Source: an uncultured Chlorobiaceae bacterium (GTDB lineage Bacteria > Bacteroidota > Chlorobiia > Chlorobiales > Chlorobiaceae). From it: a stretch of 64,000 nt of DNA. The notes beneath the pieces were generated by a model, which was not told where the DNA came from, searched no databases, and saw only the letters and a program-made list of their open reading frames with translations. The stretch is taken from assembly GCA_903836465.1 (NCBI GenBank), contig CAILRB010000044.1:3816-67815 (forward strand). Direction: 5' to 3'. This document shows, in pieces, positions 7,514 to 23,768 of this stretch. The position numbers and the translations under genes were made by a program. Each line of letters begins with the position of its first letter. Within the stretch, counting starts at the first letter, position 1.

Positions 7514-7552
7514 GATCGAAAAACGAGCAACAGAATTTATGCAATCCAGAGA

Positions 7553-8159: not shown

Positions 8160-9518
8160 ATGATTTTTGCTGCCCAGGCATCAAACCAAATTCCACCACT
8201 GTGGCTTCTTGCTCCCTTTGCTGTCCTTTTGATCATGATCGCGACAGGCCCTCTTTTGTTCCATCGCTTTTGGGAGCGGCACTATCCGGTAATTTCGACA
8301 GGGCTTGGGGTTCTTGTGGCGGGTTACTATGGAGTCGCCATGGAAAACGGGCTGAATGTTTTGGGACATACTCTTGAAGAGTACCTCTCTTTTATTGCCC
8401 TGATCTCATCCCTGTTTATTGTATCCGGTGGAATATTGATCAGGATAGAACGGAGAGGAACTCCCCTGACTAATGCTTTACTGCTTTTTGTTGGAGCCCT
8501 GATTTCAAATCTGGTCGGAACAACCGGAGCATCCATGCTGCTCATACGTCCCTATATGCGCATCAATCAAGGGCGTCTCAAAGCATTTCATATTGTCTTT
8601 TTCATTTTTATTATCAGTAATATCGGCGGTACGCTTACTCCAATCGGTGATCCCCCCTTGTTTCTTGGCTTTTTAAAAGGGGTACCATTTTTCTGGGTAT
8701 TGCCAAAAGTATGGCTCCCTTGGATCATTACCGTGGGTGTCCTGCTTCTCATTTTCGTAATACTTGATGCAAGGGCGGGAAATGTTAAGCTCAAGGAAGC
8801 TACAGTAAACGGCAGAGTGAGGATTACAGGCAAAAGAAATTTCTTTTTTCTCGCAATGATCGTTACAGCAGTTTTTCTTGATCCAGCGGTGATTGAAGGG
8901 TTTCCAAGTCTTCAGAAGCTTTTTCATCTGCCATTCGGTATCCGGGAGCTGATTATGTCTTTCGTTGCCATTACTGCATATAAATTCTCAAATCGTGAGG
9001 CTTTTAAGGGCAATGAGTTCAACTTTGAGCCCATAAAGGAGGTTGCTTTTCTTTTTATTGGCATCTTTGCAACAATGATTCCGGCTCTTGAACTTATTGG
9101 AGACTACGCTTCAAAACATGCCGCCGAATTTTCTGTATCACGCTTTTACTGGATGACAGGGGCGCTTTCCGCGCTGCTTGATAACGCTCCGACTTACATG
9201 AATTTCTTGGCCGGTGCTTTGGGAAAGTTTGGGCTGGATATCGCCACTCCAAAAGAGATACACCTCTTTGCTGATGGCCTTGCCTCCCCGGTGCAGGGAG
9301 ATGTCACCTCAGACATTTATCTTGCGGCGATTTCGGTTGCGGCGGTCTTTTTTGGGGCAATAACCTATATCGGTAACGCCCCGAACTTTATGGTAAAAAA
9401 CATTGCTGCCCAAAGTGATGTGGAAGTGCCAAATTTTCTGGAGTACATTTTCAAATACTCGCTGCCGATACTGCTTCCCTTATTTGCTCTTTTATGGCTC
9501 CTGTTTTTTAACTTTTGA
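8160..9518 (+). CDS. IT-superfamily (NhaD/ArsB/CitMHS-like) putative Na+/H+ antiporter or anion transporter
   Basis: About 12 hydrophobic segments; SNLVGTTGASMLL, NIGGTLTPIGDPPL, LDNAPTY, TYIGNAPNFMVK. Confidence 0.8.
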   Translation: MIFAAQASNQIPPLWLLAPFAVLLIMIATGPLLFHRFWERHYPVISTGLGVLVAGYYGVAMENGLNVLGHTLEEYLSFIALISSLFIVSGGILIRIERRGTPLTNALLLFVGALISNLVGTTGASMLLIRPYMRINQGRLKAFHIVFFIFIISNIGGTLTPIGDPPLFLGFLKGVPFFWVLPKVWLPWIITVGVLLLIFVILDARAGNVKLKEATVNGRVRITGKRNFFFLAMIVTAVFLDPAVIEGFPSLQKLFHLPFGIRELIMSFVAITAYKFSNREAFKGNEFNFEPIKEVAFLFIGIFATMIPALELIGDYASKHAAEFSVSRFYWMTGALSALLDNAPTYMNFLAGALGKFGLDIATPKEIHLFADGLASPVQGDVTSDIYLAAISVAAVFFGAITYIGNAPNFMVKNIAAQSDVEVPNFLEYIFKYSLPILLPLFALLWLLFFNF

Positions 9519-9937: not shown

Positions 9938-10002
9938 TTATTCCGCCCCCCATCACTACTTGTTTCAACTTTTTTGTTGACTCTATCATACGATAGTCTT
10001 TA

Positions 10003-10998
10003 TTACCCTCCTATCTCGGACATGCTTGTTCTGCCGGAGTCTTTGGAAGAGTGCTTTCCGTCCAGGGGTTTCTGGGCCACTGCTTTTCGGAACAGATCGG
10101 CGATCGATTTGTGGCTGGCATTGCTGCGGAGAAGTGGCAACAACTTCATCCCCTTTTGGTCATAAAGACAACTGATGATGGTACCGTCGGAGGTAAGACG
10201 GATCTTGTTGCACTGGCTGCAGAAATTTCGTGTAAATGCAGGAATAATCGCAATTGAGCCCTTATGATCAGGCAAGAGATAGCTAAAATACTGGGTTGAG
10301 TGGCCTTTGATAGTCTGAAGCCCGGAATAATTACTTTTCAGGAACTCCTGAATTTTATCGGCGCTGAAAAATTTTCCGGTGCGCCAGATTTGATGGTCGT
10401 CAAACGGTTGCAGCTCCAGAAATCGAACGGTGACGGCGTGCTCTCTGGTCAAATCAACAAATCGCAAAATCTCATCGCTATTGATGTCGCGCATCAGCAC
10501 AACGTTGAGCTTTATGGGAATAACGGTCGTTGCAAGAAGGTTGTCGAGGTTATGGCGCACTCGACTATAGGCATCTCTTCTTGTTATCGTATGATATCGT
10601 TCACGATCAAGGGTGTCAATGCTGAAATTGAGGGCGTCGAGACCTGCATCAACAAGAGCGGGAAGAAAACTGTCGAGCAGAAGACCGTTGGTTGTCAGGT
10701 TTACCGTTTTTATGCCTGCAATTTTTTTGGCTTCACGAACCAATTCTACAATATCCGTGCGCAGAAGAGGTTCCCCTCCGGTAAAGCGCACCTTTGTGAC
10801 TCCAAGAGTGGCAAGCACCTTGATGATGGTCATAATCTCCTGCTTGCTCAGTTGAGAGTGAGCATCAGTACTTTCTTGATGCGCCTCGCTCATGCAGTAG
10901 GAGCATCTCAGGTTGCAGCGCGAAGTGACGGCTATACGGACATAATCTATAGGTCGGTGAAACGTATCGACAAGGAAACCCTGGAAGGGACTGCTCAT
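10003..10998 (-). CDS. moaA: GTP 3',8-cyclase (molybdopterin biosynthesis)
   Basis: Radical SAM CNLRCSYC, RFTGGEPLLR, C-terminal cluster FCSQCNKIRLTSDG...CL, ends with MSEIGG. Confidence 0.95.
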   Translation of the reverse strand: MSSPFQGFLVDTFHRPIDYVRIAVTSRCNLRCSYCMSEAHQESTDAHSQLSKQEIMTIIKVLATLGVTKVRFTGGEPLLRTDIVELVREAKKIAGIKTVNLTTNGLLLDSFLPALVDAGLDALNFSIDTLDRERYHTITRRDAYSRVRHNLDNLLATTVIPIKLNVVLMRDINSDEILRFVDLTREHAVTVRFLELQPFDDHQIWRTGKFFSADKIQEFLKSNYSGLQTIKGHSTQYFSYLLPDHKGSIAIIPAFTRNFCSQCNKIRLTSDGTIISCLYDQKGMKLLPLLRSNASHKSIADLFRKAVAQKPLDGKHSSKDSGRTSMSEIGG

Positions 10999-11317
10999 GC
11001 TGCAAAAAAGGGCAAAAAAAGTGTTATGGAGAAAAAGACGCTGCTTTTTTTTTGAGCCTGCGCCTTCTCCAATATAACAAGCATTACCAACAGTTACTTT
11101 GTGGTAAAATGTTTTACGATTGGATGGTTCATAATATGATTTCTTTTTGGATGACTACTTAAGCCTTTGCCCGGTTTTTTTCCTTTGGCCGTAATCATGT
11201 ATCTTGTTGTCATAAGTTTCAATTTCTGAAAAGCTTCAAGAGGCGCATCATGCCCACTCGTTTTCAGGGATTTCACTAACGAATAGGTTCTATGACCACT
11301 TCGGGAGGAGTTGGCGA

Positions 11318-12127
11318 ATGACATGCAACAAAGAGCTCATCGGCCTTGAAGGCTCAGTCTGGTTTCAGAAGGCCGAGAACAGGTTTCTCGGAGGCGACCG
11401 GATTGCATTACTGGAAAAAATCGATGAGCTTGGCTCAATCAGCAGCGCTGCAAAAGCTGTCGGCATCAGCTACAAAACGGCATGGCATTTGGTCAACATG
11501 ATGAATAATCTATCCGAACAGCCTCTGGTTGACCGCGTAACAGGCGGAAAAGGTGGGGGGGGGACCCTGTTGACCAAAGAGGGGAAAAAAGTTATCGAAC
11601 AGTTCCGTGTTGTTCAGGAAGAGCACCGGAAGTTTCTTGAGAATCTGGGAGATCGTCTCGGAGAGAGCAATCATCTTTATCAATTTCTTAAAAGAATAGC
11701 TATGAAAATCAGTGCACGCAACATTTTTTCCGGTACGGTGGAAAAAATCATCAAGGGAGCAGTTAATTCTGAAGTTGTCCTTCTGCTCAATGGAGGAAGC
11801 CGTATTGTCGCCATTATCACCAATGGTTCGGTTGATAATCTGGGACTTAAGGAAGGCTTGAATGCTTATGCCATCATCAAGGCAAGCTCAATTATTATAG
11901 GCCAGGAGCTGCACGAGGCAAAAATAAGTACACGCAATATTTTGCCAGGCATAATCAGCAAGCTTATTGAAGGACCGGTCAGTACTGAAGTTGATGTGGA
12001 AATTGGTGGCGGGAATGTCATTTCTGCTGTTATTACCCATGGCAGTTCAGAAAAAATGTCATTGAAAGAGGGCGACCATGCCTGCGCAGCATTCAAGGCC
12101 TCAAGCGTCATCATCGGGATAAGCTGA
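11318..12127 (+). CDS. modE: Molybdate-responsive regulator (winged HTH plus two TOBE/Mop domains)
   Basis: GSISSAAKAVGISYKTAW, GGKGGGGT, and two KISARNIF/KISTRNIL...IKASSI TOBE repeats. Confidence 0.92.
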   Translation: MTCNKELIGLEGSVWFQKAENRFLGGDRIALLEKIDELGSISSAAKAVGISYKTAWHLVNMMNNLSEQPLVDRVTGGKGGGGTLLTKEGKKVIEQFRVVQEEHRKFLENLGDRLGESNHLYQFLKRIAMKISARNIFSGTVEKIIKGAVNSEVVLLLNGGSRIVAIITNGSVDNLGLKEGLNAYAIIKASSIIIGQELHEAKISTRNILPGIISKLIEGPVSTEVDVEIGGGNVISAVITHGSSEKMSLKEGDHACAAFKASSVIIGIS

Positions 12128-12184
12128 GCACGCATAAATCTTAAAAAGATTCAAGATTTTTTTTGGAAATTTGCAGAAATATGG

Positions 12185-12198
12185 TTAACAATCGTTAA
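12185..12198. promoter_or_regulatory. TTAAC-N4-GTTAA palindrome (candidate CRP/FNR-family site)
   Basis: TTAACAATCGTTAA, 24 nt upstream of the leader ATG; a near-identical copy lies at 24621. Confidence 0.45.
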
Positions 12199-12222
12199 TG
12201 CTTAACCGAAAACATTTGACTT

Positions 12223-12303
12223 ATGAATTCAGGAACTTCTAAAACTTTCACGACGTGCTGCTGCTGTTGCCGATGGTCACACCATTCTGACACAGGAATA
12301 TAG
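12223..12303 (+). CDS. Poly-cysteine leader peptide (26 aa)
   Basis: Hand translation: MNSGTSKTFTTCCCCCRWSHHSDTGI*; codons TGC TGC TGC TGT TGC at 12256-12270. Too short for the ORF track. Confidence 0.85.
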   Translation: MNSGTSKTFTTCCCCCRWSHHSDTGI

Positions 12304-12351
12304 GGGAAGAAGATAGTTACTCATATCATTTCATGAAGTACCAAGTCTTGC

Positions 12352-12383
12352 AACCGGCTCTGAGTGTCAGAGTCGGTTTTTTT
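12352..12383 (+). terminator. Attenuator intrinsic terminator
   Basis: AACCGGCTCTGA-gtg-TCAGAGTCGGTT stem (one G-U pair) followed by a T-run ending at 12383, located before the first structural gene. Confidence 0.85.
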
Positions 12384-12420
12384 ATTTTTAATTAGATTAT
12401 CAACAATAAACTTATAACTC

Positions 12421-12894
12421 ATGTCAACAAGAGCAACAACAACATGCACAGGCATACCATTACCAATAGTCAAACTGAATCGTATAGTTTTGCTCATTGG
12501 CATCATTGCCGCCATTGTGTTCCAGCAACCAATGGTGACCACCGCACTTTTTGTTATAATTCTTTCCGCTGTAGTTTTTGGTAAAAACGGCAGCCTTATT
12601 TTTTTCATCGGCTCACGCCTTTTTGCCAAGCAAAACATGACTGCTGAAAGTGAAGATCCGAGACTCATGCGATTCAACAACTCTATTGCGACTATTCTGC
12701 TCGGAGGAGCCCAGATCGCCTTCCTTTCAGGCAAACCTCTTGTCGGCTGGATCCTTTCCGGGATGGTTGCTGTTGCAGCCACCATAGCGCTTGCAGGCTT
12801 CTGCTTCGGTTGCTTCCTGTTCTACCAGTTCAAGCTGCAACGCTTCAAGCTTTTTGGAAACAGGGCGCAGATCAACGAACAAAAAACTGCCTAA
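12421..12894 (+). CDS. DUF4395-like membrane protein
   Basis: Four hydrophobic segments, EDPRLMRFNN and the C-terminal LAGFCFGC motif characteristic of DUF4395. Confidence 0.8.
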   Translation: MSTRATTTCTGIPLPIVKLNRIVLLIGIIAAIVFQQPMVTTALFVIILSAVVFGKNGSLIFFIGSRLFAKQNMTAESEDPRLMRFNNSIATILLGGAQIAFLSGKPLVGWILSGMVAVAATIALAGFCFGCFLFYQFKLQRFKLFGNRAQINEQKTA

Positions 12895-12937
12895 AATTTA
12901 TCGTAAACATCACCAATTAATAAAGGAGAGTATGTAA

Positions 12938-14239
12938 ATGAGTTCAGAAAACTATCGCTTTGAAACGCTTGCCCTGCACGCAGGCCAGCCTGTTGACGCA
13001 ACACTCTCGCGTGGAGTGCCGGTTTACCGCACCACCTCCTATCTTTTCAAGAGCACCGAACATGCAGCAAACCTTTTTGCACTGAAGGAGCTTGGCAATA
13101 TCTATACCCGGCTGATGAACCCCACAACCGATACTTTGGAGCAGCGGGTCACTCAGCTTGAAGGGGGCGCAGCCTCGGTTGCTGTCGCTTCGGGCACTGC
13201 CGCAATTTTTAATACGATCATTACTCTCGCAGAAGCAGGCGACAACATCGTTTCTGCCAACAACCTTTACGGCGGAACCTACACCCAGTTCGATGCCATC
13301 CTTCCGAAATTTGGCATCAACGTCACCTTTGTTGATCCCAAAGATCCTGCCAATTTTGAAAAGGCAATAACAGAAAAAACAAGAGCTCTTTTCATTGAAA
13401 CCATCGGCAATCCGGTTCTTGACTATACTGATGTCAAGGCCATTGCCGAGGTAGCACACCGTAACGGCTTGCCGCTGATTGTCGATGCCACCTTCACCAC
13501 TCCTTACCTGCTTAAAACGATTGACCTTGGAGCTGATATTGTGATCAACTCCCTCACTAAATGGCTTGGCGGCCATGGCGCAGGAATAGGCGGCATTATT
13601 ACTGATGCCGGACGTTTCAACTGGAATGGGGGACGCCACCCGCTCTTTACCGAGGCAGACAATAATTACCACGGTCTACGCTGGGCCATTGACCTTCCGG
13701 AACCTCTTGCTCCAATAGCATTCGCCCTCCGCTTCCGCACGGTGCCACTGAGGAATCTCGGTGCTTGCATTGCGCCTGACAATTCATGGATACTGCTGCA
13801 AGGCATTGAAACTCTCCCTGTCAGGATGGCCCGTCATTCAGAAAATGCACTCAAGGTTGCCGAACATCTTGCAAAACACCCCGGAGTTGCATGGGTTCGT
13901 TATCCCGGTCTGAAAAATGACCCCTCTTACCCTAAAGCTTCAAAAGATTTGAAGAACGGGTTTGGCGGCATGGTTGTCTTTGGAGTAAAGGGTGGTTACG
14001 ATGCTGCCGTGGAGATTATCGACAACATCAAACTCTTCTCACACCTGGCCAATGTTGGCGATGCCAAGAGCCTGATCCTCCATCCGGCAAGCACCTCGCA
14101 CAGCCAGTTGACCGAAGAACAACAACTGCAGAGTGGTCTTTCACCTGACCTGATACGCCTCTCCATCGGCCTTGAACATCCTGACGACCTGATCGAAGCC
14201 CTTGATGAGGCGCTTCAGAGAGTGGCAACAAAACCGTAA
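12938..14239 (+). CDS. metY: O-acetylhomoserine aminocarboxypropyltransferase / OAH-OAS sulfhydrylase
   Basis: FETLALHAG, GNIYTRLMNPT, PLP lysine SLTKWLGGHG, HLANVGDAKSLILHPASTSH. Confidence 0.92.
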   Translation: MSSENYRFETLALHAGQPVDATLSRGVPVYRTTSYLFKSTEHAANLFALKELGNIYTRLMNPTTDTLEQRVTQLEGGAASVAVASGTAAIFNTIITLAEAGDNIVSANNLYGGTYTQFDAILPKFGINVTFVDPKDPANFEKAITEKTRALFIETIGNPVLDYTDVKAIAEVAHRNGLPLIVDATFTTPYLLKTIDLGADIVINSLTKWLGGHGAGIGGIITDAGRFNWNGGRHPLFTEADNNYHGLRWAIDLPEPLAPIAFALRFRTVPLRNLGACIAPDNSWILLQGIETLPVRMARHSENALKVAEHLAKHPGVAWVRYPGLKNDPSYPKASKDLKNGFGGMVVFGVKGGYDAAVEIIDNIKLFSHLANVGDAKSLILHPASTSHSQLTEEQQLQSGLSPDLIRLSIGLEHPDDLIEALDEALQRVATKP

Positions 14240-14241
14240 CC

Positions 14242-14895
14242 ATGAAAAACGAATACAAGAACATTTCTGTCATTCTTGCTGATACCCAGTATTTAACCAA
14301 TGAAGCGATACACGCCATGTTGAGGCCCCTTTTCCATACCTTCTATACCGTATCGACAAAGGCCGATCTGCAAGAGTATCTGCAAAAGGAGACCATCTCG
14401 CTCATCATCACCGATGATCTCCTTTTCGATTTTGATTCAATCAATGATCTTGCTGATCTGAGAAAAAAGCACCAGGAGACAGGAATCGTTGTGTTGACAA
14501 ACTCCTTGACAAATGTAAAAATCAAGGAATTAAATGATATCGGCATCAGAAATATTGCACTGAAAACCGATGATCGCGAAGAGATTTTTCATGCTGTTGA
14601 CGCTGCACTGAAAGGAAAGAAATATTATTCTGGAAATGTTCTGGATATCCTTTTGAAAAAAGAGACCCCTTATGAAGATGCCAGTATTCTGACCTCTTCA
14701 GAAATCGAAATAGTTCGCATGATTTCCGGCGGTTTGTCAACAAAAGAAATTGCTACAAAACGGCATATCAGTTTTCATACCGTCATGACTCACAGAAAAA
14801 ACATTTTTCGCAAACTCGGCGTTTCAAGCAGTCCGGAACTGCTCATGTATGCCATAAAAGCGGGATTGATCGACAATATTGAATACCATATCTGA
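14242..14895 (+). CDS. NarL/LuxR-family response regulator
   Basis: REC-like N-terminus (ILAD, IITDD, VLTN, ALK) and LuxR HTH LTSSEIEIVRMISGGLSTKEIA...TVMTHRKNIFRKLGV. Confidence 0.9.
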   Translation: MKNEYKNISVILADTQYLTNEAIHAMLRPLFHTFYTVSTKADLQEYLQKETISLIITDDLLFDFDSINDLADLRKKHQETGIVVLTNSLTNVKIKELNDIGIRNIALKTDDREEIFHAVDAALKGKKYYSGNVLDILLKKETPYEDASILTSSEIEIVRMISGGLSTKEIATKRHISFHTVMTHRKNIFRKLGVSSSPELLMYAIKAGLIDNIEYHI

Positions 14896-14897
14896 CC

Positions 14898-14945
14898 ATA
14901 CCCTGTTTATGGTATATCAGATGCCTGTTTAACGGGATTTATAAT
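14898..14945 (+). promoter_or_regulatory. Candidate cysK promoter with two 18-bp quasi-palindromes and a TATAAT -10
   Basis: ATACC-CTGTTTAT-GGTAT (14898-14915), ATGCC-TGTTTAAC-GGGAT (14921-14938), TATAAT at 14940-14945. Confidence 0.45.
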
Positions 14946-15001
14946 TATGTATTTATTAACGATGTTGAAGGTCATTACAACCACCTAAACAATCAACAGC
15001 T

Positions 15002-15955
15002 ATGGGACGTATTGCAAAAAAATTGACCGATCTTATCGGAAACACACCTCTTCTTGAGCTTGGAAATTTCAATCGTGAACATGATGCCCTGGGCACGATT
15101 ATTGCGAAACTTGAATACTTTAACCCTGGGGGAAGTGTCAAAGACCGTATTGGTTTTTCAATGATCGACAAGGCTGAAAAAGAGGGCTTGCTGAATAAAG
15201 AGAGCATCATCATTGAGCCGACAAGCGGCAATACCGGTATTGCCCTGGCGTTTATCGCTGCAGCGAAAGGATACCGCCTGATACTCACCATGCCTGAAAC
15301 CATGAGTCTCGAACGCAGGAATCTGCTCAAGGCGCTTGGCGCAGAGCTGGTGCTGACACCTGGCCCTGAAGGAATGGTCGGAGCCATCAGAACTGCCGAT
15401 GAACTGCACTCGGAATATCCAAATTCTTTTGTTCCGCAACAGTTCAAAAACCTTGCAAATCCTGAAATTCATCGCAAAACAACGGCAGAAGAGATCTGGA
15501 ATGATACTGACGGAAAGGTTGATTTCTTTGTCAGCGGGGTAGGCACGGGCGGTACGATAACCGGTGTTGGTGAGGTACTCAAAGCGCGGAACCCTGAGGT
15601 AAAAATTGTTGCTGTTGAACCATTCGATTCACAGGTTATTGCCGGCGGTAAACCTGGACCACACAAAATACAGGGTATCGGCGCCGGTTTTGTGCCGGAT
15701 ATTCTTAACACCTCCATTATCGATGAAATTATCCCGGTTAAAAATGAAGATGCCCTTCGTACCGGCCGAAAACTGGCCAAAACCGAAGGACTTATTGTGG
15801 GTATTTCTTCCGGCGCAGCCGTTTATGCCGCTTTACAGCTTGCACTGCGTGAGGAAAACAAGGGCAAACGAATTGTCGTCATCCTGCCGGATACCGGAGA
15901 GCGGTACCTCTCCACGCTGCTCTACCAGTTTGACAGTGAACCAGTCAATATTTGA
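15002..15955 (+). CDS. cysK: Cysteine synthase A
   Basis: [41 protein letters not shown]. Confidence 0.97.
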
Positions 15956-16006
15956 ACATAATTTTATCAATACGGAGCACCATCCGACAGAGGGAGATTA
16001 TTACTA

Positions 16007-16921
16007 ATGCAGACCAACAACGGCGATATCATTGAAGAGGCGATCAAGCTTTTATCGAGCCCTGCTGATGATAGTGAAGGTGACTATTCCGGGCAGCACG
16101 AATATCTGCTGCCCTCTATTGAAAAGCTCAAAGAGATTGTCGAACTCCTCAGGTCAATACTCTTTCCTGGGTATTTCGGCGGACCCGTATTGCGTCGCCA
16201 GTCGCTTCAACATTTTCTCGGTGTCAGGGTTGAAAAACTTTACGGATTGCTTGCTGAACAGATTCTCAGCGTTCAGCATTTCGACATAGAAAACAACAGT
16301 GCTGCCAATGCTTCAGAAAAAGCCGCCGAAGTTACCCGCCAGTTCATCGGAATTCTTTCGGAGATCAGGAAGAAATTATGGACTGACGTCAAGGCCATCT
16401 ACGACGGAGACCCGGCGGCAAAAAACTATGGTGAGATCATCTTCTGCTACCCTTCCATCAGGGCAATGGTCAACTACCGCTCAGCTCACACCCTGCTGTC
16501 GCTTGGCGTGCCCCTGATTCCGAGAATTATTACTGAAATGGCCCATTCGGAAACCGGGATTGACATTCATCCCGGCGCTCACATCGGAGACTATTTTTCA
16601 ATTGATCATGGCACCGGTGTCGTCATCGGTGAAACCTGCATTATCGGCAGCCACGTCCGACTCTACCAGGGAGTCACCCTTGGCGCAAAGAAGTTTGCTC
16701 TCGATGAACACGGCAACCCGGTCAAGAATCTGCCGCGCCACCCAATTATTGAGGATAACGTCGTCATTTACTCAAACGCCAATATTCTTGGCAGAATAAC
16801 CATCGGCAAAAACTCTGTTATCGGTGGCAACGTGTGGCAGACAAAAAGCGTACCGCCCAATTCAAGAGTTTTGCAGCAGATCGCCGTTGAAAGCAGTTTT
16901 ACCGACGGCCTCGGCATTTGA
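16007..16921 (+). CDS. cysE: Serine O-acetyltransferase (EpsC/SrpH-like long form)
   Basis: GDPAA, GIDIHPGAHIG...IDHGTGVVIGET hexapeptide repeats, LYQGVTLG, RHPII. Confidence 0.93.
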   Translation: MQTNNGDIIEEAIKLLSSPADDSEGDYSGQHEYLLPSIEKLKEIVELLRSILFPGYFGGPVLRRQSLQHFLGVRVEKLYGLLAEQILSVQHFDIENNSAANASEKAAEVTRQFIGILSEIRKKLWTDVKAIYDGDPAAKNYGEIIFCYPSIRAMVNYRSAHTLLSLGVPLIPRIITEMAHSETGIDIHPGAHIGDYFSIDHGTGVVIGETCIIGSHVRLYQGVTLGAKKFALDEHGNPVKNLPRHPIIEDNVVIYSNANILGRITIGKNSVIGGNVWQTKSVPPNSRVLQQIAVESSFTDGLGI

Positions 16922-16964
16922 AAGATCACGTTAATTGTTCACCTTTAAACCATTGAATTAACCC

Positions 16965-18419
16965 ATGAACGCACAACCCGAATCAAACAGTTATCTCCAG
17001 CGCAGCGTGACAACCCATGTGGCGAGAAATCTGGCCAATACGACCAAGACTCCTCCCCAGATGAACTCCATAACCCCGAGGTGGCTCCTGAAGCTGCTCC
17101 CGTGGGTTCACGTCTCTTCTGGTACCTATCGCGTTAACCGGACAAAAATTGAGCTCCAGAAACCCGAACGTATCGGCATCGATTTTCATGACGGCGTTGC
17201 CTCGTTCAGGCCTGATGCGCTGAAAAGCATTCCGCTGTTTGCATCATTTGACAACGAAGTTATTGGTCAGATTGCAAAAAAGTTTGTGCTTGAAGAGGCC
17301 GAACTTGGCAACACGCTTATTCTTGAAGGCGAAGAGCGCCATAAAATCTTCATTATAGCACACGGGCAGGTTGAAATTTTAAGCAAGGGACTTCATGGAG
17401 AGGATCTCCGTATCGCCCTGCTTTCGGAAGGAGAATATTTCGGTGAAGAGGAGCTTGTTTCAGAGAAACCCTCCTCGGTCACTATCCGTACCATCACTCC
17501 AGGCTCGTTTTTTTCCTTATCCAGCGTTGATATCGAAAAGCTGTTCAGGGAATCGCCATCATTGAAAGAGTCATTTCAGAATACGGTTGAAGAGTACCTC
17601 AAAATACGCTCTACCGTCAACAAACACGGTGAAAAACATATTGACCTTATTGCCGGATTCGAGGAAAATGTCGAAATCCCGGAAACCTATGTTGATTACT
17701 CAAACAAACCGCGCGAATACTCGCTGCAGGCCATACAGACTGTCGTGCGCGTCCATACACGAGTCTCCGACCTCTACAACGAACCCTTCAACCAGATCGA
17801 GCAGCAGATGCGCCTGACGATCGAGGGCATCAAGGAGCGTCAGGAGTGGGAGTTCATCAACAACAGAGAGTTCGGCCTGCTCCACTCTGCCGACCCCGGA
17901 CAGCGCATCAGCACCCGCTACGGAACTCCGACCCCGGATGATCTTGACGATTTGCTTACCAAAGTATGGAAAAAACCGGCATTCTTTATTGCTCATCCCA
18001 AAGCAATTGCGGCCTTCGAACGCGAATGCACCTGGCGCGGCGTTCCTCCGCCGACGATCAACCTTTTTGGAACTCCAGTCCTGACCTGGCGCGGTGTTCC
18101 TCTTGTTCCATGCGACAAGCTTGAAATCAACAAAAACAGCAAATCCGGCCATGGCACAACCAATATCATCCTTGTTCGTGTCGGTGAAAATGAACAGGGT
18201 GTGGTTGGACTGCACCAGGCAGGGATCCCCGGAGAGATCAGTCCAAGCCTTTCTGCAAGACTGATGGGACTCGACAAACTCGGCGTCGCTTCCTACCTGC
18301 TGACCCTCTACTCATCACTGGCCGTACTGACTGATGATGCTCTCGCGATACTTGAAAATGTCGAAGTGGGCTACTATCACGATTACGAACATCGCACCTC
18401 CGGAACCAAAGTAAAATAA
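16965..18419 (+). CDS. Family 2B encapsulin shell protein (SrpI-like HK97 fold with inserted cNMP-binding domain)
   Basis: SrpI hallmarks ARNLANTTKTPPQM..ITPRWLLKLLPWV, DY..KPREY.L, RVHTRVSDLYN.P, ERQEWEFINN..FGLL, DDLDDLL.KVWKKP, WRGVPL.PCDKL, VGENEQGVVGL. cNMP domain at about aa 85-200 (IPLF...HGQVEI...GEYFGE). Confidence 0.93.
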   Translation: MNAQPESNSYLQRSVTTHVARNLANTTKTPPQMNSITPRWLLKLLPWVHVSSGTYRVNRTKIELQKPERIGIDFHDGVASFRPDALKSIPLFASFDNEVIGQIAKKFVLEEAELGNTLILEGEERHKIFIIAHGQVEILSKGLHGEDLRIALLSEGEYFGEEELVSEKPSSVTIRTITPGSFFSLSSVDIEKLFRESPSLKESFQNTVEEYLKIRSTVNKHGEKHIDLIAGFEENVEIPETYVDYSNKPREYSLQAIQTVVRVHTRVSDLYNEPFNQIEQQMRLTIEGIKERQEWEFINNREFGLLHSADPGQRISTRYGTPTPDDLDDLLTKVWKKPAFFIAHPKAIAAFERECTWRGVPPPTINLFGTPVLTWRGVPLVPCDKLEINKNSKSGHGTTNIILVRVGENEQGVVGLHQAGIPGEISPSLSARLMGLDKLGVASYLLTLYSSLAVLTDDALAILENVEVGYYHDYEHRTSGTKVK

Positions 18420-18439
18420 AAGAACTCTTTGACAACCCG

Positions 18440-18470
18440 TCATGGCAGGCTTTCAACGTGTCTGCCATGA
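18440..18470 (+). other. Intergenic stem-loop between the shell and cargo genes
   Basis: TCATGGCAGGC-tttcaacgt-GTCTGCCATGA, 11-bp stem (one G-U pair), no U-tract. Confidence 0.6.
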
Positions 18471-18488
18471 ATTCACAATTGTTATACT

Positions 18489-20375
18489 ATGCCAGGAGCA
18501 TATCAACATCCGAACATCACAGGAGCCGAAAGCGAATCGCTGAATCCGACCTTTATTGCGCAACTTGCAAGCCGTCTCTTCAATGAACTCCCTGAGGCAG
18601 AAAACGTCCCGAGAAGTGAAGGTGATATCTCGGAAGCGCCATCTGCTGTAGCCAACACTTTCCATGATAAAACAACATTCGTCGGCACACAGGATCCCGT
18701 GGATTTCTCCTCCAGTGCCGCTTCAGCGATCCCGGTACACGATTTCTATTTTCTGCCGCACGCTCAAGAAAAAGAGCCGGAACCACTTGAACACCATGCC
18801 AATAAACTGACCGAACAGCAGAACTATTCAGAGAGTGAAAAGGGATCGAATGGTCTTGACCAGCTTTTGCGGCGTTCACTGCCTGTACAGACTGATGAGC
18901 ATGAATGTTACGCAGAAAAGCTCTACAGGGAGTTCACCGGGCAACAGGGCAGTCCCGTCATGGAGGTCGTTTTTCAGGCTCTTCGCGGTAGCGCCGAATC
19001 GCCTGCTCAGCCGGGCTTTGATCGATTACCCGTTACTCAACCTGAGTCTCCAGGAAAAGCGCCAGCTCCGGTCTCGCCAAACAGCGCCTTCAGCATCCCG
19101 GATTCTTACGCAGAGCCTTACTATTTCCTGCGTGAACCGCAACAGCCTATCCATCAGACAGAAGGATTTGATGTAACCACCATTCGCAAGGATTTTCCGG
19201 TCTTGCGTCAGTTGGTTCACGGCAAACCGCTTGCCTGGTTCGACAACGCCGCCACAACGCAAAAACCCCTGAGCGTCATCAACGCTGTAGCGCACTTCTA
19301 CGCCACGGACAATTCGAACATTCATCGCGGCGCACATACCCTTGCCGCTCGCGCCACCGATGCTTACGAAGGCGCACGCGAAAAGATCAGGCAGTTTATC
19401 GGCGCTGGCTCAACCTCGGAAATCATCTATGTCAGGGGCACTACCGAGGGTATCAACCTTGTGGCACAAACCTGGGGAAGAAAGTTTCTCCAGCCGGGCG
19501 ATGAGATTGTGCTCTCCATTCTTGAGCATCATGCCAATATCGTTCCGTGGCAGATGGTAGCCCAGGAGAAAGGAGCGCGCATCAAGGTGATCCCGGTCAA
19601 CGATCGGGGCGAAATCATCCTTGAAGAGTACACCAAACTGCTTGGGCCACGCACGCGCCTGGTCTCACTGACACAGGCTTCGAACGGTCTTGGAACCATT
19701 CTGCCTGTCAGGGAGATGATTCAACTGGCCAAACGCTATGACGCCAGAGTGCTTGTTGATGGAGCCCAGTCCGTTGCCCACATACCGGTCAATGTGCAGG
19801 ATCTCGATGCCGACTTTTTTGTCTTTTCAGGCCATAAAATCTTTGCTCCGACAGGTATCGGTGTGGTCTATGGCAAAAAAGAGCTGCTTGAGGTAATGCC
19901 GCCATGGCAGGGCGGCGGAAACATGATCAAGGATGTACGTTTCGAAGAGACCATTTACAACGAAGCCCCGGCAAAATTTGAGGCTGGAACGCCCTCAATC
20001 GGAGACGCCATCGGCCTTGGAGCTGCTCTTGATTACGTGCGCAAAATAGGTCTTGAAAACATTGCGCAATACGAGCACGAACTGACCGAGTACGGCACTG
20101 AAAAGCTGATTCGCATTCCCGGTCTGCGTCTGATTGGCACCGCAAGAAACAAGGTGGGCGTGCTCTCTTTTGTGCTGAACAATCTGCCCAACGAAGAGGT
20201 TGGCAAGCTGCTCGACCGCGAAGGCATTGCCGTCCGGGCCGGGCACCACTGCACCCAGCCATCGTTGCGCCGCTTCGGTGTTGAGGGAACCGTACGACCG
20301 TCGCTGGCCTTCTACAACACGAGAGATGAAATTGACCGGCTGGCTGATGTGATCAACCATATTCAGCGGAGATAA
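18489..20375 (+). CDS. SufS-class cysteine desulfurase with ~225-aa disordered N-terminal encapsulation domain
   Basis: FDNAATTQKP, EHHANIVPWQ, PLP motif FSGHKIFAPTG, catalytic RAGHHC. The Pro/Ser/Glu-rich extension contains IAQLASRLF, FYFL and PYYFL. Confidence 0.93.
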   Translation: MPGAYQHPNITGAESESLNPTFIAQLASRLFNELPEAENVPRSEGDISEAPSAVANTFHDKTTFVGTQDPVDFSSSAASAIPVHDFYFLPHAQEKEPEPLEHHANKLTEQQNYSESEKGSNGLDQLLRRSLPVQTDEHECYAEKLYREFTGQQGSPVMEVVFQALRGSAESPAQPGFDRLPVTQPESPGKAPAPVSPNSAFSIPDSYAEPYYFLREPQQPIHQTEGFDVTTIRKDFPVLRQLVHGKPLAWFDNAATTQKPLSVINAVAHFYATDNSNIHRGAHTLAARATDAYEGAREKIRQFIGAGSTSEIIYVRGTTEGINLVAQTWGRKFLQPGDEIVLSILEHHANIVPWQMVAQEKGARIKVIPVNDRGEIILEEYTKLLGPRTRLVSLTQASNGLGTILPVREMIQLAKRYDARVLVDGAQSVAHIPVNVQDLDADFFVFSGHKIFAPTGIGVVYGKKELLEVMPPWQGGGNMIKDVRFEETIYNEAPAKFEAGTPSIGDAIGLGAALDYVRKIGLENIAQYEHELTEYGTEKLIRIPGLRLIGTARNKVGVLSFVLNNLPNEEVGKLLDREGIAVRAGHHCTQPSLRRFGVEGTVRPSLAFYNTRDEIDRLADVINHIQRR

Positions 20376-20385
20376 CTAGGAACTC

Positions 20386-20426
20386 TTCAAAACGCAACGT
20401 TGATCATGAAAATGTTGCGTTTTGAA
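20386..20426. other. Inverted repeat downstream of the desulfurase
   Basis: TTCAAAACGCAAC (20386-20398) / GTTGCGTTTTGAA (20414-20426), perfect 13 bp; possible terminator or processing site. Confidence 0.55.
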
Positions 20427-20488
20427 AAGAAAGAGAAAAATAACGGTTATCTTTTGTCTGATTTTTTCCTGAAAGCAAAACAGATTTC

Positions 20489-21628
20489 ATGCAGTTTGAA
20501 ACCCTTGCCATCCATGACGGACAAGCACCTGATCCCCAAACCGGCTCTGTAACCGTTCCTGTTTACCAGACCTCCACCTTCGGGCGCGACAGCCTCGACG
20601 AGCGCAATGAGTTTTTTTATTCTCGAATCGGCAACCCGACACGGAAAGCGCTTGAATCAGCACTTGCGCTCCTTGAAAATGGCAAGTACGGTCTCGCCTT
20701 TGCCTCTGGAGTGGCGGCAACCATGGCGGCGCTGCAGGTGCTGAAACCCGGCGACCACATTGTTGCGGGCAACGACATTTACGGCGGAAGCTACCGCATT
20801 TTCGAGCAGCTCCTGAAACCATGGGGCGTTACCACCAGCTATACCGAAAGCGAAGCAACCGAGAGTTATGAAGCCAGCATAACACCGGCGACGAAGCTGA
20901 TCTGGATTGAAACCCCAAGCAATCCGCTGCTCCAGCTCTCCGACATCAGGGCGCTTGGCAAGCTTGCCAAAGAGCGTGGGATCTTGCTTGCAGTGGACAA
21001 CACCTTTGCCAGTCCCTATTTCCAGCGGCCACTTGAGCTTGGCGCCGACATTGTCGTGCACAGCACCACCAAATACCTCGGCGGCCACAGCGATGTCATT
21101 GGCGGCGCCGTGGTAACTTCAAACACGGCGATACACACCACCATCAAAAACTATCAGGGCGCAGCAGGGGCAGTACCCGGCCCCTGGGACTGCTGGCTTA
21201 TTCTGCGCGGTTTGAAAACGCTGAAAATCCGCATGAAGGAGCACGAAGCAAGCGCAATGCACCTTGCCGAAATGCTTGAACGCCATCCTGCTGTGGAACG
21301 GGTCTTTTATCCTGGCCTTGCCTCGCACCCGCAGCATAAACTGGCAAAAGAGCAGATGAGCGGGTTTGGCGGCATGGTGACCTTTGCCTTGAGCGGTGGC
21401 CTTCCGGCCGTCGAGCGGTTGATCGCGAAAATCAAATTCTTTGTACTGGCCGACAGCCTTGGCGGGGTGGAGTCGCTCATCTCCTCGCCAGCAAAAATGA
21501 CGCTCTGGGCGCTTTCACAGGCTGAGCGGGAGCGGAGAAAATGTACCGACAACCTGGTACGACTCTCTGTCGGGCTTGAAAATGCGACTGATCTTGAGGC
21601 TGACCTCCTGAACGCCCTTGAGCCATAA
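20489..21628 (+). CDS. Cystathionine gamma-synthase/lyase family PLP enzyme (trans-sulfuration)
   Basis: [48 protein letters not shown]. Confidence 0.92.
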
Positions 21629-21684
21629 GTTGAAAAAATATTTCAAGAGAGGCGACCTAAACAAATAGTGAAGAAATGTCATAA

Positions 21685-21888
21685 ATGATTACTATTGACC
21701 TGAACGGACAACAACAACCACTTCCCCCCGATTCTACCGTCAGCGATCTTCTCGCGGCCATCGGTTCAGACGGGAAAAGCGTGGCCGTCGTTGTTAATGA
21801 ACAAATCATTCGCCCCGAAAACCGCCCATCGCACCTGCTTCAGGCGGGTGACAGGGTTGAACTCCTGATTTTTGCCGGCGGTGGCTAA
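21685..21888 (+). CDS. thiS: Thiamine biosynthesis sulfur carrier
   Basis: 67 aa, LNG, VAVVVNEQII, GDRVE, C-terminal GG; sits upstream of thiG. Confidence 0.93.
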   Translation: MITIDLNGQQQPLPPDSTVSDLLAAIGSDGKSVAVVVNEQIIRPENRPSHLLQAGDRVELLIFAGGG

Positions 21889-21903
21889 CAGATTACTTTT
21901 ATT

Positions 21904-22680
21904 ATGGATTCATTGCAGATCGGCTCGTATACTTTTTCTTCACGCCTGATTCTTGGAACAGGAAAATTCAGCAACTCAACGGTAATGCTTGAGGCCGTGA
22001 GGGCCTCAGGTACACAACTCGTGACCGTAGCGTTGCGACGCTTCAACCGCGAACAGGCGGAAGATGACCTTTTCGGCCCCTTATCGGCCATTGAGGGAAT
22101 AACGCTCATGCCAAATACTTCTGGAGCTTCAACCGCTGCAGAGGCTGTCCGTGCGGCCCATATCGCCCGCGAACTCTCGGGAAGCCCCTTTATCAAGGTG
22201 GAAATTCATCCGAACCCGCAGCACCTGATGCCTGACCCCATTGAAACCTATGAAGCTTGCCGGATTCTGGCACAAGAGGGGTTCTTGGTGATGCCCTATA
22301 TTGCCGCAGACCCTGTACTGGCCAAGAGGCTTGAGGAAGTTGGCTGCGCGTCGGTGATGCCGCTCGGTTCGGCTATCGGCAGCGGACAGGGGCTTGCAAC
22401 GTCGGAGATGCTCAACATTATCATCCGTGAAAGCGGCATTCCGGTTATTGTCGATGCCGGTCTGCGCTCCCCTTCCGAGGCGGCGCACGCCATGGAGATG
22501 GGATGTGAAGCGGTACTGGTGAACAGCGCCGTAGCAGCAGCAAGCAACCCGCCTGCAATGGCAGAGGCTTTCGCGGAGGCTGTTGCAGCGGGAAGAAAAG
22601 GATTCAGGGCCGGGCTGATGCAGAAAAGCGGTTCCGCTGTGGCCACAAGCCCACTCACCTCTTTTCTGGGAACATGCTGA
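21904..22680 (+). CDS. thiG: Thiazole synthase
   Basis: [42 protein letters not shown]. Confidence 0.96.
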
Positions 22681-23768
22681 TGACAACTTTACCGGAATGG
22701 CTTTCCGACAATCGTGGCACTACAGCCCTTGCCGCCATGCTGTCACCTGCATCATCACAATCCATTGAAACTCTTGCCGCTGAATCGAGAGCAATCACCC
22801 TGCGACGTTTCGGACGCACGATGACGCTCTACGCCCCGCTTTACCTCTCAAACTACTGTTCAAGCGGCTGCGCCTACTGCGGCTTTGCTTCCGACCGAAA
22901 GACGCCGCGCCATCGTCTTGAACCTGATGAGATCCGACGGGAACTGGGCGCAATGAAAAAACTTGGCATCAGCGATATTCTTCTGCTCACTGGCGAGCGT
23001 ACCGCCGCTGCCGATTTCGACTATCTTCAGAGGAGTGTTGCCATCGCGGCTGAGGAGATGCCGCGAGTCTCGGTTGAGGCTTTTCCGATGAGCGTCAGCG
23101 AATACAGGGCACTTGCCGACTGTGGCTGCACCGGTATCACCATCTACCAGGAGACCTACAACCGCGAACGCTACGAAACACTGCACCGCTGGGGCCCGAA
23201 AAAAGATTTTATCGCCCGCCTGGAAACTCCTGCCCGCGCGCTTGAAGGGGGAATAAAAACCGTCGGGCTCGGGGTACTGCTCGGTCTTTCCGATCCGGTT
23301 GAAGATGCCCTGAGCCTCTATCGCCATGTTCGACACCTCGGGCGCACGTACTGGCGTGCCGGTATGACCGTATCGTTTCCACGCATGAGACCACAGACCG
23401 GCGGTTATGAGCCACCTTTCCCGGTTGACGATCACCTTCTCGCAAGAATAATCTTTGCCTTCCGCATTGCTCTTCCCGATACGGAACTGGTGCTCTCAAC
23501 GAGGGAGAGCGCGAACTTCCGTGATGGAATGGCGGGACTTGGAATTACCAGAATGAGCATCGAGAGCAGAACCACTGTTGGAGGATATTGTGAGAGTGAG
23601 AACGAAGAGAGCAAGGAGAGAACAGACAAGGGGCAATTTGAAATATCTGATAACCGCTCTGCCAAAGAGTTCTGTGCTGCTCTGCGCCGCCAGAATATTG
23701 AGCCGGTCTTCAAAAACTGGGAACTCTCCTATAACGGCCCGTCATCCAACATAAAACTGGCAATGTAA
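22674..23768 (+). CDS. thiH: 2-iminoacetate synthase (radical SAM)
   Basis: [51 protein letters not shown]. Confidence 0.94.

Follow-up and report, generated by a model that had tools for sequence, protein, structure and literature searches.

Comparison with related genomes indicates that the Cys/Met synthesis cluster of an uncultured lake Chlorobium, which has a short leader gene at its head, is a conserved Chlorobium operon made of the leader, DUF4395, metY, a response regulator, cysK, cysE, a metB-like gene and thiSGHF. In this study, we propose that three elements act on this Cys/Met operon: (i) an attenuator, (ii) the response regulator, and (iii) a palindrome-binding factor. Taken as a whole, this model appears to us reasonably probable; we infer the partner protein of each site, and whether the effect is activation or repression.

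All eight elements named in the preliminary description (attenuator, DUF4395, metY, LuxR regulator, cysK, cysE, encapsulin and encapsulated desulfurase) were found at the positions given for them, all on the forward strand of the window, by which we mean the whole 64,000-nucleotide stretch of DNA that was analysed (Table 1). The co-oriented block extends past 20375 with the metB-like gene and thiS, thiG, thiH and thiF, and the terminator scan predicted no intergenic terminators from 12400 to the end of the block at 24535. The synteny search that had been suggested recovered the same gene order in about 25 loci of other Chlorobium species. Because this order recurs, and because 45 of the 60 distinct Chlorobiaceae upstream regions retain at least three Cys codons in a row (the remaining peptide diverges), the arrangement is, on comparative grounds, not a product of chance. 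The gene for the DUF4395 protein is the first behind the attenuator; the protein has a CxxC close to its C-terminus, and no NCBIfam name was found for it. The MetY-type enzyme possibly also uses O-acetylserine, and the serine O-acetyltransferase matches TIGR01172 under the cutoff of that model.

Table 1. Features of the Cys/Met synthesis cluster, in window coordinates.
Feature	Position	Strand	Evidence or remark
Promoter-like region P1	12163-12198	+	near-invariant block in 18-locus alignment
Leader ORF, 26 codons, MNSGTSKTFTTCCCCCRWSHHSDTGI then stop	12223-12303	+	translation
Proposed antiterminator 5' strand (region 2)	12281-12305	+	pairing statistics, duplex energy, ribosome-mask folds
Intrinsic terminator of attenuator	12352-12385	+	terminator scan; compensatory changes
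DUF4395 membrane protein	12421-12894	+	PF14340, E=1.1e-23
MetY-type O-acetylhomoserine sulfhydrylase	12938-14239	+	TIGR01326, 590 bits vs cutoff 495; PF01053
NarL/VraR-family response regulator	14242-14895	+	GerE, E=4e-15
Two phased 18-bp palindromic sites, putative operator	14898-14938	+	pattern count, positional conservation
Degenerate copy of P1 palindrome, TTAACGATGTTGAA	14956-14969	+	3 mismatches to P1 site
cysK, cysteine synthase A	15002-15955	+	TIGR01139, 464 bits vs cutoff 351
Serine O-acetyltransferase (EpsC/CysE type)	16007-16921	+	NF041874, 152 bits vs 150
Family 2B encapsulin shell	16965-18419	+	NF041163, 590 bits vs 400; PF19307 and PF00027
Encapsulin cargo, SufS-type cysteine desulfurase	18489-20375	+	NF041166, 800.7 bits vs 800
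Cystathionine gamma-synthase/lyase-like (metB-like) gene	20489-21628	+	downstream of desulfurase
thiS, thiG, thiH-like, thiF	after metB-like gene, up to 24535	+	same orientation

The attenuator that had been claimed upstream of DUF4395-metY-regulator is well supported by comparison among relatives: the Cys-run ORF is conserved, the terminator covaries, and part of the leader is complementary to that terminator. The ORF has five tandem Cys codons (12256-12270), and conservation of the leader was seen in a comparison of 24 related loci. The terminator has a 12-bp G+C-rich stem (12352-12378) with a 3-nt loop, followed by TTTTTTT, and three of its pairs carry compensatory changes (RNAalifold); an Rfam search of the leader gave no family match. 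By these comparisons, the leader ORF and the terminator form a real conserved unit. The core of the proposed antiterminator strand, TCTGACAC (12283-12290), lies within the final codons of the ORF. The proposed pairing is made in 82.8% of cells, against at most 42.5% with a slid partner, and when the duplex formed by region 2 with the terminator is compared with shuffles in 53 leaders, its energy gives a median z of -2.1. The CTGACA/TGTCAG complementarity persists in leaders of the Chlorobaculum type, whose peptides are unrelated, and a paired change is seen between two leaders (GCTGTC/GACAGC in L045 and GCTGTT/AACAGC in L052). Covariation is almost absent from this helix because both of its strands are nearly invariant. 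When a ribosome is masked in, the terminator gives way to the antiterminator in the folds of the window leader and of four other loci; in the minimum-energy fold of many loci, the terminator persists despite a mask at the Cys codons. In the window leader itself, a TCG-to-TAG change shortens the ORF, with loss of the lower part of the proposed helix.

From these data we infer that the leader is translated and that the antiterminator pairs. When Cys-tRNA is plentiful, the ribosome would reach the leader stop codon (12301) and cover the TCTGACAC segment, whereupon the terminator would fold and transcription would end. When Cys-tRNA is scarce, the ribosome would stall at the five Cys codons and leave this segment free to pair with the terminator, which would allow read-through to DUF4395-metY-regulator. 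As a prediction, this Cys-tRNA-dependent read-through is well supported.

The regulator had been described as LuxR, which is right for its GerE/LuxR helix-turn-helix; the addition of a receiver domain makes the protein a NarL/VraR-type response regulator. Its gene does start 2 nt past the metY stop codon, as had been reported. The Response_reg match (27.6 bits) is slightly under the Pfam cutoff of 30.2, and of the two N-terminal acidic residues, just one is present in the receiver domain. The closest solved relative is VraR, with Asp58 of the regulator aligned to Asp55 of VraR. Since this phospho-acceptor Asp is kept, the regulator probably requires, and would integrate, a further signal of its own. 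It shares its domain architecture and this Asp with the NarL/VraR family but differs in having no nearby cognate kinase gene; no kinase gene adjoins it, and it can be called an orphan. In many relatives, an HPr-like gene is found coupled to that of the regulator.

Two candidate sites for this regulator, of the pattern ATACC-N8-GGTAT, begin 3 nt beyond its stop codon: ATACCCTGTTTATGGTAT (14898-14915) and ATGCCTGTTTAACGGGAT (14921-14938). In the window there is one exact match to the pattern, and four matches are found when one mismatch is allowed (0.73 expected). In 52 of 53 distinct spacers, such sites lie -103 to -122 and -80 to -86 relative to the cysK ATG, and the same pair recurs in a Bacteroidales MAG locus (L156) beside a 49%-identical regulator and cysK; another locus (L152) has one ATACC-type site. 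Conservation of the outer 5-mers (ATACC/GGTAT) is base-specific, and the inner 8 nt vary. The two sites keep a fixed 23-bp phasing, as is typical of response-regulator dimers and known from NarL-family operators. The paired inverted-repeat operators of NarL (7-2-7 sites) likewise have a TACC-containing half-site and two phased copies upstream of the promoter; to our knowledge, the putative half-site ATACCRTA matches no characterised NarL/VraR-family member. The conservation of the sites and their recurrence in Bacteroidales support an action of the regulator on cysK, and we propose to assign the sites to it on co-occurrence only. Regulator made from the read-through transcript would bind these two sites just 3' of its own gene, and would most likely activate a promoter for cysK-cysE-encapsulin-desulfurase. 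The candidate promoter that had been placed at 14896-15001 was not recovered, a sigma-70 scan of the spacer between the regulator gene and cysK reporting none.

A third conserved element is a 14-bp palindrome, TTAACAATCGTTAA (12185-12198), which overlaps the -10-like hexamer of P1. This putative promoter consists of TTGGAA (12163-12168), an 18-nt spacer and AACAAT (12187-12192). The window has two exact copies of TTAAC-N4-GTTAA (0.04 expected), and the palindrome also lies upstream of cysK in paralogous encapsulin loci, where the regulator sites are absent. At the position matching the degenerate copy in the window, two related loci (L046 and L047) have near-perfect copies upstream of cysK. 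The presence of the palindrome both on the leader promoter and on cysK promoters devoid of regulator sites points to parallel control by another factor. A dimeric protein binding TTAAC-N4-GTTAA across the leader promoter's -10 region, and at the cysK promoters of relatives, would add a separate input, probably a repressive one.

The encapsulin shell protein bears an inserted cNMP-binding domain, and its cargo desulfurase has an N-terminal extension of about 230 aa with IAQLASRLFNE and AEPYYFLRE, which resemble the published encapsulin loading motifs LARLANEFFS and AASPYYFLDG. The preliminary description had made this pair an integral part of the design. In at least 10 related loci, regulator-cysK-cysE-metB is found without encapsulin, the metB-like gene being directly 3' of cysE, and MAGs with such operons carry a separate cysK-encapsulin-desulfurase locus. 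Judged from this distribution, encapsulin-desulfurase, whose sulfur-storing shell is of a known type, is an optional cassette that in the window lineage has entered the operon between cysE and metB.

Expression could be followed only in assembled metatranscriptome contigs of related strains (88-95% identity), which are without strand information, have flat depth values and may include DNA carry-over. One such contig covers 13886-15903 (metY, regulator and cysK). Contig depth, which is weak data, falls from about 35 on the leader to 0 at the terminator, with 1.5-4.5 in DUF4395. Another observation is a contig that extends from modE into the leader region, and part of the leader RNA may belong to the end of modE transcripts.

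Such contigs bear on the two-tier cascade of the preliminary description, of which the Cys-gated read-through is well supported, and the action of the regulator before cysK gains support from sites that the description did not have. In its strict serial form, cysK-cysE-encapsulin-desulfurase would be transcribed solely from their own promoter, firing only once read-through has produced the regulator. The position of the regulator gene behind the attenuator, tightly spaced to metY, and the conserved sites before cysK fit such an order, but we consider it unlikely: between the regulator gene and cysK there is no terminator, and one RNA contig crosses this junction, the conserved Asp probably answers to another signal, the palindrome adds a third element (it stands without regulator sites at paralogous cysK-encapsulin-desulfurase loci), and the cassette is optional. 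With no intervening terminator and a spanning contig, attenuator read-through may also supply cysK-cysE-encapsulin-desulfurase directly.

The same contig and the terminator-free stretch would suit a single long operon with no regulator tier, in which the attenuator and the palindrome factor govern DUF4395 to thiF and the regulator has unrelated targets. The ATACC elements would then be RNA hairpins (for processing or stability) or sites of another protein; they are palindromic, so that RNA folding is possible, and symmetry does not separate palindromic DNA sites from RNA hairpins. This seems to us quite unlikely, given the base-specific conservation of the outer 5-mers around a variable interior, the weak, A/U-rich stems without a U-tail, the 23-bp phasing, and the occurrence of these elements in non-transcribed-looking promoter regions of paralogous loci and with the regulator gene into Bacteroidales. 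It is highly improbable that the poly-Cys ORF is not a sensor at all (encoding a functional Cys-rich micropeptide, or being fortuitous) and that the hairpin at 12352 is the modE terminator. The contig from modE would agree with this, as would the position of modE directly upstream in many loci, but leader and terminator are kept in loci with modE missing or inverted (L004, L021, L024, L025 and L029) and always precede Cys/Met genes, and the leader is conserved only in the Cys run, start codon and terminator-complementary segment.

The claim that this wiring is undescribed is partly right, since poly-Cys leader attenuators and sulfur-starvation-controlled cysK/cysE/encapsulin/desulfurase clusters have been published in other phyla. 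Mycobacterial poly-Cys short-ORF attenuators (Canestrari et al., bioRxiv 10.1101/834739), with Cys leaders predicted in Actinobacteria (PMC1262725), are also tandem-Cys short uORFs before cysteine-metabolism operons, where ribosome stalling at low Cys raises downstream expression, as we propose for Chlorobium. Unlike these, the Chlorobium element combines a 5' UTR with an intrinsic terminator, that is, transcriptional control; it has no sequence relationship to them, and belongs to another phylum with other downstream genes (DUF4395-metY-response regulator). The uORFC-8-2 motif upstream of cysS in Rhodobacterales (PMC8632094), which has two Cys codons and controls a tRNA synthetase gene, and the trp/his/leu attenuators share with it a regulatory-codon leader ORF followed by a U-run intrinsic terminator, and alternative pairing set by ribosome position (proposed for Chlorobium). 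In contrast to uORFC-8-2, Chlorobium leaders have 3-7 Cys codons and precede biosynthetic genes and a regulator gene. Among encapsulins, 199 Family 2B desulfurase operons have been catalogued (PMC8346489), and SrpI-type desulfurase systems are induced by sulfur starvation (PMC8049743, PMC10836720). The SrpI-type operons (the S. elongatus srp cluster and the Acinetobacter four-gene operon) also have a shell gene followed by a SufS-type desulfurase, whose disordered N-terminal loading domain has two known motifs, whereas the window has a single shell gene of the cNMP-domain (2B) form in a green sulfur bacterium lineage. In cyanobacteria, the cluster reportedly depends on the CRP-family regulator CysR; the candidates in the window are instead the Cys-codon attenuator, the NarL-type response regulator and the palindrome. 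Attenuator read-through and the regulator together would make the wiring of the Chlorobium operon a feed-forward amplifier rather than a strict two-step relay.

The eight elements that the preliminary description had assembled into one cysteine-gated locus are all present on the forward strand at the positions it gave, according to profile searches and a terminator scan, and the regulator gene does begin 2 nt past the metY stop codon. Position 20375, which had been taken as the end of the locus, is not the end of the block: co-oriented genes run on to 24535. Pfam and NCBIfam searches confirmed each gene, with the curated cutoffs exceeded in most cases. The window is nearly identical to contigs from lake-water metagenomes and its closest relatives are uncultured Chlorobiaceae MAGs; the locus is also found in the cultured Chlorobium ferrooxidans DSM 13031 and in Chlorobium sp. 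KB01. With the encapsulin and the regulator as queries, we gathered 157 related loci, designated here by L-numbers.

Features of the cysteine locus in the window, and of related loci where a locus handle is given
Feature	Position	Strand	Remarks
Palindrome TTAACAATCGTTAA	12185-12198	+	shares bases with the -10-like hexamer of TTGGAA-N18-AACAAT, a conserved block 5' of the leader
Leader ORF	12223-12303	+	reads MNSGTSKTFTTCCCCCRWSHHSDTGI and stop; five consecutive Cys codons at 12256-12270
Terminator	12352-12378, then seven T	+	12-bp G+C-rich hairpin; top match of the terminator scan
DUF4395	12421-12894	+	Pfam/NCBIfam profile searches
MetY-type O-acetylhomoserine sulfhydrylase	12938-14239	+	Pfam/NCBIfam
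GerE/LuxR-type regulator	14242-14895	+	Pfam/NCBIfam
ATACC site 1, ATACCCTGTTTATGGTAT	14898-14915	+	begins three nt past the regulator stop codon
ATACC site 2, ATGCCTGTTTAACGGGAT	14921-14938	+	weaker copy, starting 23 bp after the first
cysK	15002-15955	+	Pfam/NCBIfam
Serine O-acetyltransferase (cysE)	16007-16921	+	Pfam/NCBIfam
Family 2B encapsulin shell with cNMP-binding domain	16965-18419	+	Pfam/NCBIfam
SufS-type cysteine desulfurase	18489-20375	+	Pfam/NCBIfam; N-terminal extension of about 230 residues
Cystathionine gamma-synthase-like, thiS, thiG, thiH-like, thiF	to 24535	+	same orientation as the block
HPr-like gene	L001:7000-7266; L020:6877-7143; L034:6875-7141; L021:6743-7009; L046:6923-7189		also in many encapsulin-free loci
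Paralogous locus type	L009, L011-L019, L023, L030, L035, L036, L038, L039, L043, L051		

The leader ORF has 26 codons and places its five tandem Cys codons upstream of metY, cysK and cysE. Among 60 distinct sequences upstream of DUF4395, 45 carry a run of 3-7 Cys codons (within codons 11-20) in an ORF some 30 codons long; in a further 6 the run consists of two Cys codons only. The flanking peptide is poorly conserved (for example MNSGTSKTFTM..., MKSKASTIYIM..., MSSTHPIFLATL...). Since the alignment retains just the start codon, the Cys run and a segment shortly before the stop codon, the pattern fits a sensory leader, not a functional peptide. The window leader stops four or five codons earlier than those of its closest relatives (12296-12303, compared with L003 and others) owing to a TCG-to-TAG change, which also deletes a UCGG able to pair with the base of the terminator 5' arm. 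Other Cys-rich ORFs were discarded as leaders: the 4-Cys ORF of the paralogous locus L009 sits within a real gene in another frame, and the remaining 3-Cys ORFs of the window are not conserved.

The hairpin begins 48 nt 3' of the leader stop codon. It was recovered by RNAalifold from 18 loci, with compensatory changes in three pairs and no variation in the loop and upper 3' arm (TGTCAG). The leader segment TCTGACAC (12283-12290) is the complement of this invariant part, its terminator-side counterpart being GTGTCAGA, and in most loci the leader segment could pair over a longer stretch with the loop and both arms of the terminator, at -19 to -26 kcal/mol. This pairing is stronger than that obtained with shuffled leader segments (median z of -2.1 over 53 leaders, half of them below -2), and 82.8% of the cells in the antiterminator alignment can pair, whereas sliding the partner strand gives 42.5% at most. 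Covariation is nearly absent because both strands hardly vary; in the divergent Chlorobaculum-type leaders the complementary pair changes jointly (GCTGTC/GACAGC in L045, GCTGTT/AACAGC in L052). From these data we infer an antiterminator pairing, and its geometry fits the classical attenuation model: 12283-12290 is covered once a ribosome has reached the stop codon (12301), but stays free while the ribosome is stalled with a Cys codon in the A site. In folds computed with a ribosome mask at the last Cys codon, the antiterminator replaced the terminator as the structure of lowest energy in the window and four further loci, though not in every locus. An Rfam scan of 10000-23000 at E up to 1 gave no relevant match, the one hit being a chance-level STnc410 on the other strand.

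Related RNA sequence was found in just one small metatranscriptome, from a lake, as assembled contigs of strains with 88-95% identity; a search for RNA runs covering the C. ferrooxidans locus gave none. In these contigs the depth drops from about 35 over the leader to 0 at the terminator and reaches 1.5-4.5 in DUF4395, a pattern that is weakly consistent with termination at the hairpin. One contig seemed to skip 81 nt of the leader ORF; this was set aside as an alignment artefact, as the peptide-coding part has diverged and the short side of the alignment is only 29 nt. Upstream, the interval from the modE stop codon to the leader promoter (12128-12165) holds only a weak A/U-rich hairpin and a T8 run, and a metatranscriptome contig joins modE to the leader, some of whose RNA may thus come from read-through of modE.

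The regulator had been described as LuxR-like, and it does possess a GerE helix-turn-helix domain (E=4e-15), but it has no autoinducer domain and is not a quorum-sensing LuxR: it belongs to the NarL/VraR family of response regulators. Its receiver domain scores 27.6 bits, slightly under the cutoff of 30.2, and in a full-length alignment to VraR its Asp58 falls on the phospho-acceptor Asp55, with the Thr and Lys positions retained. No kinase gene adjoins the regulator at the locus. In many Chlorobium relatives an HPr-like gene of 88 aa (PF00381, E=3e-12), with the His15 and Ser46 equivalents kept, lies between metY and the regulator and ends 2-5 nt ahead of the regulator start; the window is without it, the regulator directly following metY. 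The HPr-like protein could donate phosphate to the orphan regulator or act as its partner.

Downstream of the regulator gene, the exact ATACC-N8-GGTAT element occurs once in 64 kb, and there are 4 matches with at most one mismatch against 0.73 expected. Of 53 distinct spacers separating the regulator from cysK, 52 have a site of this quality at -103 to -122 relative to the cysK start codon, usually with a second at -80 to -86. Both sites, in the same 23-bp phasing, stand between the regulator stop codon and cysK in the Bacteroidales MAG L156, whose regulator is 49% identical, and one site precedes the cysK-like gene of the Bacteroidetes MAG L152. Because the regulator gene and the site travel together across classes, there is good comparative evidence that the regulator binds the ATACC sites, an assignment based on co-occurrence. 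A DNA operator is favoured over an RNA element, as the outer 5-mers are conserved base-specifically around a variable inner 8 nt, and any stems formed in RNA would be weak and without a U-tail. The sites abut a TTTACA/TTTATA-like hexamer, which makes activation from about -40 and -63 plausible. As for the separate promoter proposed ahead of cysK, the operator-like sites there are conserved but the sigma-70 consensus scan gave no match, at this or at the other proposed promoter region, which speaks neither for nor against either; Chlorobi promoters may not fit the consensus. A sigma-54 promoter at TTGGAAATTTGC was rejected on reading the sequence, the GG/GC spacing being wrong.

Further copies of the element were seen outside this spacer. 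In L036, a paralogous locus, extra ATACC-N8-GGTAT sites at 8167 and 8579 flank a cold-shock-like gene (8273-8497) in a noncoding stretch, between a substrate-binding-protein gene on the minus strand (6833-7915; sulfonate/NitT-TauT-like by eye) and the paralogous cysK. Similar extra sites are present in L012, and those of L036 hint at further members of the regulon. The L152 spacer between the regulator homologue and the cysK-like gene (L152:5080-5450) contains about eight tandem copies of a unit of about 49 nt (TTTAGGCAACCAAATCAAATCGTGTTTGACAATCTAAAAATT...).

The preliminary description had linked these parts in a two-tier cascade, in which cysteine starvation would let the attenuator be read through, the regulator be made and cysK and the encapsulin then be switched on by it. 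This reading is supported in part, but not as a strict relay. No terminator was predicted from the regulator gene to cysK, and one contig of 2026 nt covers 13886-15903, that is the metY 3' end, the regulator and cysK, so that read-through of the attenuated transcript into cysK itself is likely; a second contig joins cysK and cysE. The circuit looks like a feed-forward arrangement. Moreover, a separate factor that binds the TTAAC-N4-GTTAA palindrome probably controls both promoters in parallel, since this element occurs both at the leader promoter, where it is nearly invariant in all full loci, and upstream of cysK. In the paralogous cysK-encapsulin-desulfurase loci it stands about 45-65 nt upstream of cysK, often without an ATACC site; it is present in the regulator-cysK spacer of L046 and L047, and a degenerate copy is found in the window at 14956-14969. 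The exact palindrome occurs twice in the window against 0.04 expected. ModE was rejected as the binding factor, as loci with no neighbouring modE gene also contain the palindrome and the moaA/modE intergenic region lacks it. The 5-4-5 geometry resembles that of CRP/FNR-type sites, which we take as a lead only. A stronger role for the response regulator is conceivable but rather unlikely in our estimation: a Cys-tRNA-sensing attenuator would gate an orphan NarL-type regulator dedicated, throughout Chlorobiota and in some Bacteroidota, to activating cysteine synthesis and, in genomes with the cassette inserted, the sulfur-storing encapsulin. Under this dedicated-activator reading the HPr-like protein might be the phosphodonor of the regulator, with which it is translationally coupled in many relatives. 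If true, a Family 2B desulfurase compartment would for the first time have a transcription factor and an operator assigned to it, and a leader-peptide attenuator would set the level of a regulator, not of enzymes alone.

Two copies of the palindrome type lie at 24588-24634 (ATAACCGTTGTTAT and TTAACAACCGTTAA), about 110-150 nt upstream of the 2-oxoglutarate dehydrogenase E1 gene (24743-27574), which is followed by the E2 and lipoamide dehydrogenase genes; ATAACCGTTGTTAT is a related copy next to the second exact palindrome of the window. The element holds the equivalent place in the related loci L002, L003, L007 and L008, which suggests that the 2-oxoglutarate dehydrogenase genes and the sulfur-amino-acid operon share a regulator.

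The compartment genes carry the hallmarks of a Family 2B encapsulin with cysteine-desulfurase cargo, its assembly and loading being predicted from sequence. The shell matches NF041163 (590 bits, cutoff 400) as well as PF19307 and PF00027, as in SrpI-like shells of the HK97 fold with a cNMP-binding domain, and the desulfurase matches NF041166 (800.7 bits, cutoff 800). The N-terminal 230 aa of the latter have no Pfam domain; they contain IAQLASRLFNE and AEPYYFLRE, which resemble LARLANEFFS and AASPYYFLDG of encapsulin-loaded desulfurases. Across relatives the leader/regulator/cysK operon recurs, but the encapsulin is optional: at least 10 Chlorobium genomes have leader, DUF4395, metY, regulator (in some with the HPr-like gene before it), cysK, cysE, metB, thiS and thiG, with no encapsulin or desulfurase. 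Several MAGs with such an encapsulin-free operon hold the encapsulin-desulfurase pair at a second locus behind another cysK, and Chlorobaculum-type genomes have the order cysE, encapsulin, desulfurase, regulator paralogue. The conserved core is a Cys/Met operon with its own regulator, into which the compartment genes were inserted between cysE and metB in the lineage of the window.

The paralogous locus type, with cysK, encapsulin and desulfurase and without cysE, metY or the regulator, is found in many Chlorobiaceae MAGs, some of which also have the main operon. Its promoters fall into two classes, one with the palindrome alone at about -50, the other with the palindrome at -127 and an ATACC site at -89. 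In L009 the cysK ahead of the encapsulin (L009:9564-9980) is cut to 138 aa with a frame-shifted tail and is probably a pseudogene. In the window, a 13-bp perfect hairpin with a 15-nt loop (TTCAAAACGCAAC ... GTTGCGTTTTGAA, 20386-20426) lies directly past the stop codon of the desulfurase gene. Neither strand carries a U-run, and the hairpin may serve RNA stability or processing, or be a scar left by insertion of the cassette. Relatives about 70% identical (L060-L080, from Planctomycetota, Spirochaetota and Geobacter MAGs) show two tandem 2B shell genes followed by the desulfurase in Planctomycetota and the order cysK-cysE-shell-desulfurase in Leptospiraceae/Spirochaetota. These arrangements agree with the two-component 2B shells in the literature and with a cassette that spreads by horizontal transfer.

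The wiring had been thought undescribed, which holds for the combination but not for the parts or the general logic. Cyanobacterial desulfurase-encapsulin genes reportedly depend on CysR. Cys-codon leader ORFs have been predicted in Actinobacteria (PMC1262725), those of mycobacteria were shown experimentally to act on translation (bioRxiv 10.1101/834739), and a terminator-based Cys-codon leader precedes cysS in Rhodobacterales (PMC8632094). Family 2B encapsulins with desulfurase cargo are known from 199 operons, in which serine O-acetyltransferase is the most enriched neighbour (PMC8346489), and sulfur starvation induces desulfurase encapsulins in Synechococcus elongatus and Acinetobacter, with storage of elemental sulfur (PMC8049743, PMC10836720). 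A literature search on Chlorobium and leader-peptide attenuators found no paper linking the two, nor did we find a published cysteine regulator or leader attenuator for Chlorobium ferrooxidans-type green sulfur bacteria. The novelty lies in this attenuator family, in a regulator-operator pair that persists into Bacteroidales, and in their occurrence together with a 2B compartment in green sulfur bacteria.

In conclusion, known mechanisms are extended here to a new lineage and a new combination, and current understanding is not overturned. The locus provides a concrete, easily testable regulatory model of cysteine homeostasis in Chlorobium ferrooxidans-type green sulfur bacteria, enlarges the small set of known Cys-codon attenuators by an unrelated, terminator-based one, and proposes an operator (ATACC-N8-GGTAT) for a response-regulator family that Bacteroidales share. 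Finally, cysteine-regulon promoters appear to acquire the desulfurase encapsulin as a cassette, which bears on when and why cells build a sulfur-storage compartment.
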